A stretch of 64,000 bases of DNA from Escherichia coli (GCF_003334815.1 NZ_QOWO01000021.1), one strand, 5' to 3'; shown: positions 10,350 to 12,206, counted from the stretch's first letter. Numbers and translations: made by a program. Notes: generated by a model not told the origin, from the letters alone.

Positions 10350-10667
10350 TCATATATGGCAAACTGTAATACAGTTGCTTGTACTGAAAAGTATTCTGTA
10401 TAAAACAGAATCCATATTCATATCAGCACAAGGGACCACCAAATCCCGGCAGTATTCATTACGTCAGTTATCCCGCATCACTCTGTGAGTGAGTTTTTTT
10501 ATGAGGTTACTTTTTCATTGAATATAAATAATGAATAACCGCAGATTCTGATAATCCTCCTCCAGGGAACAATCAGGTAAACAGTAAATACATCAGTTAA
10601 TACCATTTTGTCTTTTTAACAAAGAAAATATTCATGGAGTAAGTTCCCGGGCATTTGCCCGGGATGA

Positions 10668-11933
10668 TTACTGTTTTAATGGATTATTAATCTTTGCATA
10701 TTCAAATGGACTGATAAATCTTTCTCTGTTTGCATCCAGAAAATCGGCCCACCATTGTAGCATCAAGCGGCGTTCTTCCAGATGTTCTGCTTTATGAATG
10801 TAAGCAGCACGTACACCGTTACGTTCCTGATGGCTCATCTGACGTTCAACAGCATCGCGGGACCACAAACCTGATTCTATTAACGCACTACATGCCATCG
10901 CCCGGAACCCATGACCACAGACATCCCGGGTTGTGTCATACCCCATAACCCTCAGGGCTTTATTTACGGTGTTTTCACTGATTGGTTTACGTGGGTCATG
11001 TGCTCCCGTAAAGATCAGACCATTTTCACCAGCCCATGTCTGAAGTTCTGCCAGTATGGCTACAGCCTGTTTGCTGAGTGGCACAAGATGTGGTGTTCGC
11101 ATCTTGGATCCCCGGTGTGAGAATTTTACGCCTGGCAGAGGTTCGCGCTCAGCTGGAATAGTCCACATGGCATTGTCAATATCAATTTCCGACCAGCGGG
11201 CGTATCTGAGTTCACTGGAACGAATAAAAACCAGTAAATTCAGCATAACTGCCAGTTGGGTGACAGGCTGGCCTTTATAACCGTCAATACGCGACAGAAG
11301 TTCAGGCAGGCGTGAAAGATCCAGAGCAGGGCGGTGCTGGCGTTTTACCGTGGTCAATGCACCAGCCATATCCAGAGCCGGGTTATATCTGATGATGCCA
11401 GACTGTACGGCATAACGCATTACAGCAGATATTCTTTGCTGCAGACGACTGGCGATTTCATAAATTTGTTTAGCTTCTGCAGCACGAACAGGGATAAGCA
11501 GGTCCGGGGTACTGAGTGTTGTGATATCCCGGTTGCCGATAAAGGGGAAAACGTGTGTCTCGAGGCTTTTGAGTACTTTATCGCTGTGTGATTGTGCCCA
11601 TTGTTTATTACTGACATGCCAGCGTCGTGCAATATGTTCAAAAGAGAGTTGTAAATCAGGGACTACTTTTTTAGCTCTTTTCTGTTCGCAAGGGTCAATC
11701 CCCTCCGAAATCAGTTTTCGGGCTTCATCCCGTTTTGTACGAGCTTCGGAGAGAGATACTTCCGGATACACACCAAGTGCCAGAGTCTTCTCCTTACCCA
11801 GAATACGATAACGGAGACGCCAGTAACGGGAACCATTGGGATGTACCAGCAGGAACATGCCAGCCCCGTCAGTGAGTTTATAAGCCTTGTCAGTGGGCTT
11901 TGCAGCCCGGATTTTTGCGTCAGTCAGTGCCAT
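10668..11933 (-). CDS. int: Tyrosine site-specific integrase, P4/CP4-57 type (421 aa)
   Basis: Full-length ORF; N-terminus MALTDAKIRAAKP...YWRLRYR typical of tRNA-associated P4-like integrases; C-terminal catalytic region HxxR...Y; lies ~200 nt from tRNA-Phe 3' end. Confidence 0.9.
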   Translation of the reverse strand: MALTDAKIRAAKPTDKAYKLTDGAGMFLLVHPNGSRYWRLRYRILGKEKTLALGVYPEVSLSEARTKRDEARKLISEGIDPCEQKRAKKVVPDLQLSFEHIARRWHVSNKQWAQSHSDKVLKSLETHVFPFIGNRDITTLSTPDLLIPVRAAEAKQIYEIASRLQQRISAVMRYAVQSGIIRYNPALDMAGALTTVKRQHRPALDLSRLPELLSRIDGYKGQPVTQLAVMLNLLVFIRSSELRYARWSEIDIDNAMWTIPAEREPLPGVKFSHRGSKMRTPHLVPLSKQAVAILAELQTWAGENGLIFTGAHDPRKPISENTVNKALRVMGYDTTRDVCGHGFRAMACSALIESGLWSRDAVERQMSHQERNGVRAAYIHKAEHLEERRLMLQWWADFLDANRERFISPFEYAKINNPLKQ

Positions 11934-12130
11934 AGTTCAGCCTTCTGAATGAGTTAAAGAGGGTACAAATTCTGTCGAACTGGGGTATACCCGCAATTAT
12001 ACCCACACAATGGGGTTGATGTGGGGGGAATCTGGTTGAGTTCGGTAGAATTGATTTGGAGGAAGAACACTTAAATCATGGTGTTCTGAAACGAAAAACG
12101 GACCTCCGTGGAGGTCCGTTGATATGAATT

Positions 12131-12206
12131 TGGTGCCCGGACTCGGAATCGAACCAAGGACACGGGGATTTTCAATCCCCTGCTCTACCGACTGAGCTAT
12201 CCGGGC
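12131..12206 (-). tRNA. pheV: tRNA-Phe (GAA anticodon)
   Basis: 76-nt exact reverse complement of the E. coli tRNA-Phe sequence (GCCCGGATAGCTCAGTCGGTAGAGCAGGGGATTGAAAATCCCC...CCGGGCACCA) as I recall it. Confidence 0.95.

Follow-up and report, generated by a model that had tools for sequence, protein, structure and literature searches.

The integrase end of a probable GI-pheV genomic island in Escherichia coli

We assign, with a probability of about 0.9, positions 1-12130 of the window (the whole 64,000-nt stretch of E. coli DNA analysed here, from NZ_QOWO01000021.1) to the tRNA-proximal 12 kb of a GI-pheV genomic island, of which the region at 10350-12206 forms the integrase end. The junction at pheV is real but ordinary and already known, since the same junction is found in more than half of the sequenced E. 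coli genomes; no other tRNA-island junction is as common in E. coli, its details have been catalogued, and in itself it is nothing new. The use of the result is therefore mainly for annotation: the right-hand boundary of the island is fixed at 12130/12131, the integrase is named as a member of the intP4 family, the position of the left-hand boundary is predicted, and 1-12130 is flagged as accessory DNA with defence-type cargo that varies between strains. Candidate arm sites and a conserved hairpin after the integrase gene are small, testable additions. Further additions are a pheV terminator supplied by the island, a leuX-type integrase remnant at 7541-7735 and a phosphoethanolamine (pEtN) transferase that by its sequence is orthologous to yjgX. 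The features around the junction are:

10668-11933, minus strand: intP4 (int), P4/CP4-type tyrosine integrase of 421 aa, intact, no internal stop
11934-12130, minus strand: int-tRNA spacer of 197 nt, the attP-derived arm with the int 5' region
12131-12206, minus strand: pheV, tRNA-Phe with anticodon GAA, intact (ARAGORN; Rfam RF00005, 68.3 bits)
12131-12153: proximal att core, the last 23 nt of pheV, reading TGGTGCCCGGACTCGGAATCGAA on the plus strand
12312-13019, minus strand: yqgA, the next gene to the right of the tRNA
13357-15552, plus strand: speC, to the right of yqgA

The tRNA-Phe(GAA) gene is the only tRNA that ARAGORN finds in the 64-kb window, and an Rfam search of 7400-13400 at permissive E-values returned nothing besides this tRNA. 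By inspection, 12131-12206 is identical to pheV of K-12. Since yqgA and speC flank it as they do in K-12, we identify the gene as pheV. The integrase gene lies directly 3' of pheV with yqgA on the other flank, which is the arrangement that defines GI-pheV. K-12 MG1655 has pheV, its own terminator and then yghD, with neither integrase nor island, and so provides the empty site. The GC content is 43.3% in the island part of the window (1-12130) and 51.4% in the core part (12207-64000).

Of 5426 complete E. coli genomes, 3055 (56%) contain a full match to a 771-nt probe that reaches from int across pheV into yqgA. Where the island is lacking, as in K-12 derivatives, the match begins at position 482 or 474 of the query, which corresponds to 12131 or 12123 of the window. 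Hence, the breakpoint of homology is the 3' end of the tRNA gene. The first-pass annotation had taken the locus for a canonical tRNA-targeting integrative element and for an insertion instead of a universal locus; the yqgA/speC flanks, the P4/CP4-type integrase, the empty K-12 site and the presence of the junction in 3055 of the 5426 genomes bear out both statements. In the published survey, GI-pheV occupies 52% of complete genomes, its structure is modular and mosaic, and intP4 is its only conserved gene (Nhu et al. 2024, PLoS Genet, PMC11537424).

The integrase gene at 10668-11933 is intact, as had been claimed, with an uninterrupted reading frame of 421 aa, and its 5' end, put at about 200 nt from the tRNA 3' end (12131), measures 197 nt from it, on the strand of the tRNA. 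The protein has the three-domain architecture that marks P4/CP4-type integrases (arm-binding, core-binding and catalytic): Pfam places Arm-DNA-bind_3 (DUF4102) at residues 3-88 (E 7e-30), Phage_int_M at residues 98-192 (E 1e-26) and Phage_integrase at residues 210-383 (E 3e-16). Corroborating this assignment, PHROG 1 (integrase) matches the protein with E = 5e-63, and matches in the PDB are to the N-terminal and central domains of a CP4-like integrase (1e-31). When the catalytic domain alone was searched against PDB sequences, only chance matches came back; hence, the six catalytic residues (R238, K277, H341, R344, H368 and Y378) were placed by the box I and box II motifs and not by a structure-based alignment.

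The window integrase is 100% identical in protein sequence to that of strain 52F4 (RefSeq WP_001218789.1 there) and 98% identical to ECs_3843 of O157:H7 Sakai. In nucleotide sequence it is 93.5-96.9% identical to int of CFT073, H10407, 536, Sakai and 55989 (96.0% for UPEC 536), which places it in the intP4 cluster, where 98% of the genes share >94% nucleotide identity (PMC11537424). With a divergence of 3-6.5% from each of these five representative alleles, it is a minor allele within that family. Compared with four other alleles, we found dN/dS values of 0.05-0.08. Hence, int has been kept functional under strong purifying selection. These ratios, and the occurrence of the same gene block at pheU and at pheV, indirectly suggest that the protein may carry out site-specific recombination.

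The att repeats had been described as outside the window and not resolved; we could resolve the proximal copy, which is within the window, at the tRNA 3' end (12131-12153), and, in a proxy genome, the distal copy, which is indeed outside. No second copy of the pheV 3' end was found in the 64-kb window by a gapless search allowing up to 3 mismatches or with shorter exact seeds. As a proxy for the DNA upstream of position 1, we used strain 52F4 (NZ_CM147848.1), a genome other than the window's own, which is colinear with 1-25000 of the window in one piece at ~100% identity. Searching upstream for a repeat of the pheV 3' end, as had been proposed, yielded in this proxy a 22-nt copy, TGGTGCC-GGACTCGGAATCGAA, equal to the 23-mer minus one C (21089-21110 of the retrieved 52F4 locus, L002). 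The gapless search and a fuzzy regular expression are blind to this copy, which carries the 1-nt deletion; it was located by reading the sequence and with shorter exact seeds. The distal junction reads ...GCAAAAACCCGCCTTGTGGGCGGGTTCTTAAGAATTAG TGGTGCCGGACTCGGAATCGAA GATTGC....

In 52F4 the distal repeat lies 27.2 kb to the left of pheV and ~15.06 kb before the base that corresponds to position 1 of the window. Hence, with 52F4 as the proxy, the island is ~27.2 kb long and its distal boundary is outside the window, as the first-pass annotation held. To the left of the repeat, 52F4 is identical to K-12 at its empty site, with the native pheV terminator and yghD/gspM, and the repeat and the native terminator together occupy 21040-21110 of the same locus. 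The distal repeat published for many strains, TTCGATTCCGAGTCCGG-CACCA, equals the 52F4 copy exactly (Nhu et al. 2024, PMC11537424). A distal pheV direct repeat of 19-23 nt is present in 66% of GI-pheV islands, and single mismatches in the repeat can strongly lower excision (PMC11537424).

For the origin of this arrangement, we propose that the integrase would recombine attP of a circular island with attB, the last 23 nt of the tRNA-Phe gene. Integration would duplicate the 23-mer, the island would supply a replacement 3' end for the tRNA gene along with its own terminator, and the original 3' end and native terminator would be displaced to the far side of the island. Recombination of attP with attB in this way is established for P4/CP4-type tyrosine integrases, and in the near-identical genome of 52F4 both the native terminator, displaced, and the distal repeat of 22 nt can be seen. 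The two tRNA-Phe genes pheV and pheU have these last 23 nt in common.

The 197-nt spacer between int and the tRNA is conserved among the pheV and pheU islands compared, and in part with a leuX-type island. It contains:

12097-12120, minus strand: intrinsic pheV terminator supplied by the island, with a 10-bp stem, a 4-nt loop and a T-run (terminator scan)
12001-11996, minus strand: TATAAT, a lone promoter-like feature (read from the sequence)
11959-11967, minus strand: TGTACCCTC, a candidate arm-type integrase site 26 nt upstream of the int ATG

The island-supplied terminator begins 10 nt past the tRNA 3' end and folds with -17.6 kcal/mol (z = -4.7). K-12 has a different, native terminator in that place (GAACCCGCCCACAAGGCGGGTTTTTG), and in 52F4 the native pheV terminator adjoins the distal repeat. 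A ribosome-binding site, GAAGG, can be read before the int ATG. A sigma-70 promoter scan upstream of int gave no full promoter and no recognisable -35 element. The TATAAT may serve as the int promoter, and since a good -35 element is missing, int would be expressed poorly without an activator.

The 9-mer TGTACCCTC has a single exact copy in the 64-kb window. In 52F4 we found three copies versus 0.13 expected, all at the island ends: one is at int, and the other two, which are inverted, lie inward of the distal repeat by 53 and 65 nt. REL606 shows the same arrangement. From this placement, the copies are candidate arm-type sites for the N-terminal domain of the integrase.

The far side of the integrase gene is an intergenic spacer with two hairpins:

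10350-10667: spacer between the convergent pEtN-transferase and int genes, 318 bp, AT-rich (36.2% GC)
10478-10500, plus strand: weak terminator-like hairpin with a run of seven T, 129 nt past the pEtN-transferase stop (terminator scan)
10646-10663: GC-only hairpin, CCCGGGC-ATTT-GCCCGGG, 4 nt past the int stop codon

The length and AT-richness first given for this spacer are correct, and the position given for the GC-only palindrome is exact. The second palindrome, placed near 10476-10490, is present but at 10478-10492, with a 6-bp stem (TCACTC/GAGTGA) and a 3-nt loop, followed by GTTTTTTT. At least 80% of the spacer is covered in 1417 of the 5426 genomes, and its first 84 nt match K-12-type laboratory strains near 4.49 Mb, a map position that would fit the leuX/yjgX region.

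With its flanks, the GC hairpin folds with -19.9 kcal/mol (as int-sense RNA, loop AAAT; z = -5.1), and 0 of 200 shuffled sequences were as stable. Sakai, CFS3246, 52F4 and RM14721 (the last at pheU) have the identical stem; in RM14721 the loop is TGCCA in place of AAAT, and what follows downstream is unrelated. Since a perfect 7-bp hairpin of some kind arises in 14% of mononucleotide shuffles of the spacer, it is the folding energy relative to shuffles and the conservation, not the mere existence of a palindrome, that put the GC hairpin beyond chance. In the window it has no T-run and hence is no canonical intrinsic terminator; it is near the end of the conserved integrase module and is probably the 3'-end structure of the int transcript. 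The folding energy of the second hairpin is no better than that of shuffles (z = -0.2), and this hairpin is a weak, if plausible, terminator candidate for the transferase gene. The reading that best suits the two palindromes is that of hairpins of the 3'-end or terminator type, belonging to the convergent int and pEtN-transferase genes. We rejected them as att or recombination sites because they are at least 1.5 kb from the core, lie between convergent genes and behave as 3'-end hairpins.

To the left of this spacer, the window holds:

8850-10349, plus strand: YjgX-type pEtN transferase of 499 aa, intact, convergent with int
7949-8698, plus strand: small outer-membrane beta-barrel protein (NCBIfam Adr adhesin, OmpW-like; 'outer membrane protein' in RefSeq)
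7541-7735, minus strand: 3'-terminal remnant, ~65 codons, of a second, leuX-type (intB-like) integrase
1-7540: variable island cargo (RefSeq annotation of near-identical genomes; PADLOC, PHROG)

The pEtN transferase has NCBIfam matches to the CptA/EptA families, all of them under the curated cut-offs, and is 88% identical in amino acids to the K-12 pseudogene yjgX, which lies beside intB and leuX. Judged by sequence, it is the intact counterpart, and an ortholog, of K-12 yjgX. YjgX/YhbX was found at every pheU, pheV and selC insertion analysed in an earlier study (PMC6174562). The integrase remnant is 75% identical in nucleotides to the 3' end of the window's own int, and tblastn aligns it to residues 352-416 at 63% identity. 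A closer match, 90.3% identical, is the corresponding end of an intact integrase gene, that at tRNA-Leu (leuX) of strain CU42ET-1, where this integrase comes directly after the same restriction-modification (R-M), helicase and hypothetical-protein cargo. RefSeq annotates the remnant as a partial integrase in near-identical genomes.

The cargo at 1-7540 consists of a type I R-M fragment, a 1093-aa DEAD/DEAH helicase, a 440-aa unknown protein, a PDC-S08 5'-nucleotidase-like gene and an HNH endonuclease pseudogene. Other cargo takes its place in CFS3246 (pheV) and RM14721 (pheU). The comparison with pheV and pheU islands that had been suggested at the outset thus shows the same block, from the remnant to int, in both of these strains, and the outer-membrane protein gene is kept with the transferase gene and int at either locus. 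Since the block is constant and the cargo differs, the island is a mosaic, with exchangeable cargo on the left of the remnant. More fully, it is a decayed mosaic of swappable defence-type cargo and a conserved proximal block made up of the HNH pseudogene, the leuX-type integrase remnant, the outer-membrane protein, the yjgX-type transferase and int. The remnant and the pseudogenes show that change in the island comes largely from decay and from recombination in place, not from movement as a unit.

How far such decay has gone bears on a reading that we place a little short of even odds, namely that the island is a fixed, immobile relic with an intact int, in which excision has been lost, change comes by homologous recombination, IS elements and deletion, and the junction is a scar. 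The distal core is short of one base, neither the window nor the 52F4 island gave an AlpA-type excisionase (recombination directionality factor) in a tblastn search with K-12 AlpA as the query, the promoter scan revealed no clear int promoter, and an integrase remnant, pseudogenes and R-M fragments lie within the island. Many unrelated strains moreover share the identical distal repeat with its 1-nt deletion, which suggests an old, vertically inherited scar, and GI-pheV co-evolves with the core genome (PMC11537424), which also counts for a relic. Against this, dN/dS of 0.05-0.08 speaks for continued selection on integrase function, and the candidate arm sites have been kept at both island ends; the same block at pheU and pheV in different strains fits integrase-mediated relocation. 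Excision that needs no dedicated excision factor is reported for some related island integrases. Present-day excision is thus favored by an intact integrase under purifying selection, by arms at both ends and by the occupation of both Phe tRNA genes, and disfavored by the deletion in the distal core, the missing AlpA-type factor, the lack of a clear promoter and the extensive decay. In its strongest form, the case for mobility would be that the TGTACCCTC copies are true arm sites, that the island excises and re-integrates at pheV or pheU without an excision factor, and that the GC hairpin is a preferred breakpoint for cargo exchange, as might be guessed from the conserved stem and from the loop and downstream sequence that are swapped between islands; we consider this combination quite improbable.

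The leuX-type remnant raises a different structure, in which int would belong only to a small proximal element (the outer-membrane protein, the yjgX-type transferase and int) in tandem with an older leuX-type island, and a deletion would have fused the two with loss of the internal att. The remnant at 7541-7735 is in the same orientation and 90% identical to the leuX-associated integrase of CU42ET-1, which there comes right after the R-M, helicase and hypothetical-protein cargo also found here, and the block from remnant to int is conserved as the cargo to its left varies. However, a leuX-type integrase is not expected to integrate at pheV, and no internal pheV-type or leuX-type repeat is left in the window; since very different cargo can also accompany the block, recombination in or near the remnant that captured cargo fits equally well, and we hold the tandem origin to be unlikely. 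A P4-like phage satellite, a prophage or an integrative conjugative element, in place of a non-self-transmissible island, is very improbable indeed. The P4 family of the integrase would suit such an element, as would the CP4-44-like 'yee' genes of the 52F4 island (cbtA/yeeU, radC and an antirestriction gene), but genes for capsid, primase (alpha), psu/sid/delta, conjugation, relaxase and type IV secretion are not annotated in the 27-kb 52F4 island or in 1-12130 of the window, the window proteins had no NCBIfam, PADLOC or PHROG matches of this kind, and we rejected all three classes because their defining genes are absent there.

Read as a GI-pheV island, the window agrees with the published GI-pheV/intP4 islands in that the integrase adjoins the pheV 3' end with the same 23-nt tRNA-derived repeat, and 52F4 agrees further in the same 1-nt deletion of the distal copy (PMC11537424). 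The modular, mosaic structure, with flu and yee modules in 52F4, and the prevalence (52% in that survey versus 56% here) are also alike, whereas the cargo here is of defence type (R-M fragments, helicase, PDC-S08) and does not consist of virulence modules.

SpLE3/OI-122 of O157:H7 Sakai, at pheV, resembles the integrase end: its ECs_3843 is also a 421-aa integrase (the 98% identical protein above) that lies 197 nt from pheV, and the terminator supplied by the island and the hairpin after the stop codon are shared too. Unlike the window, Sakai has IS66 debris beyond ~70 nt past the int stop, then pagC, espL2, nleB and nleE, with no yjgX-type transferase, and its island is also without the distal repeat. 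The she island of Shigella flexneri and PAI V of UPEC 536 likewise have a P4-type integrase at pheV and tRNA-derived direct repeats, and both are pheV islands whose excision has reportedly been shown experimentally. Excision of she is said to use the accessory factor Rox; here, no AlpA-type factor was found. The leuX island of K-12 (KpLE2, 'PR-Y') shares with the window the order of a tRNA gene, a P4-type integrase and a convergent yjgX pEtN-transferase gene, with protein identities to the window counterparts of 67% for IntB and 88% for YjgX. Unlike the window, the target there is leuX, and intB and yjgX are both pseudogenes with IS2 between them.

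Comparison of the P4-type integrase gene int (10668-11933) with other alleles of the intP4 family revealed high synonymous divergence (dS 0.12-0.25). Window by window, the pattern of identity to these alleles was mosaic-looking, and the 3' third of int was the most divergent part relative to CFT073, H10407 and RM14721. Together, the high dS and the mosaic-looking identity suggest recombination inside int.

Two features of the island lie to the left of int:

8850-10349, + strand: putative pEtN transferase, intact, yjgX orthologue (88% amino acid identity to the K-12 pseudogene yjgX)
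7541-7735, - strand: second P4-type integrase, leuX/intB type, of which only the 3' end is left (90% identity with the integrase at leuX in strain CU42ET-1)

Whereas yjgX is a pseudogene in K-12, its orthologue in the window is intact; we found that this putative transferase scores far under both the MCR and EptA cut-offs. The convergent pairing of int and yjgX was found repeatedly, in pheV, pheU and leuX islands.

At the integrase remnant, the conserved proximal block gives way to the variable cargo. The cargo at 208-7389 looks like a defence islet. One of its genes, 5'-nucleotidase-like, matches PDC-S08, a candidate system in PADLOC (E = 2e-134); its 1093-aa DEAD/DEAH helicase has weak PbeA and type I/IV restriction-enzyme matches. 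The HNH endonuclease, named 'phosphorothioated DNA-binding restriction endonuclease' in RefSeq, is a pseudogene with an internal stop, and a 440-aa protein had no match in NCBIfam, PADLOC or PHROGs.

In strain 52F4, left of the distal repeat (17945-20940 of the 52F4 locus sequence), gspM/yghD adjoins the repeat and is immediately preceded by a yghQ-like gene, beyond which lie yghR, yghS, yghT and pitB. In K-12, the yghE-yghJ(-glc) segment comes after yghD; since the yghQ-like gene directly precedes gspM/yghD in 52F4, this segment is apparently absent there. This gene order suggests that a large stretch of DNA flanking the 52F4 island has been deleted or replaced.

Over the island/tRNA junction region (10350-12206), strain EC556 matches the window at 100% identity. 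Two features of EC556 are absent from the window: an IS3 that separates the outer-membrane protein and transferase genes, and, between yggM and hemW, a TRAP transporter encoded by three genes (33765-36588 of the EC556 locus sequence versus window 24014-24169).
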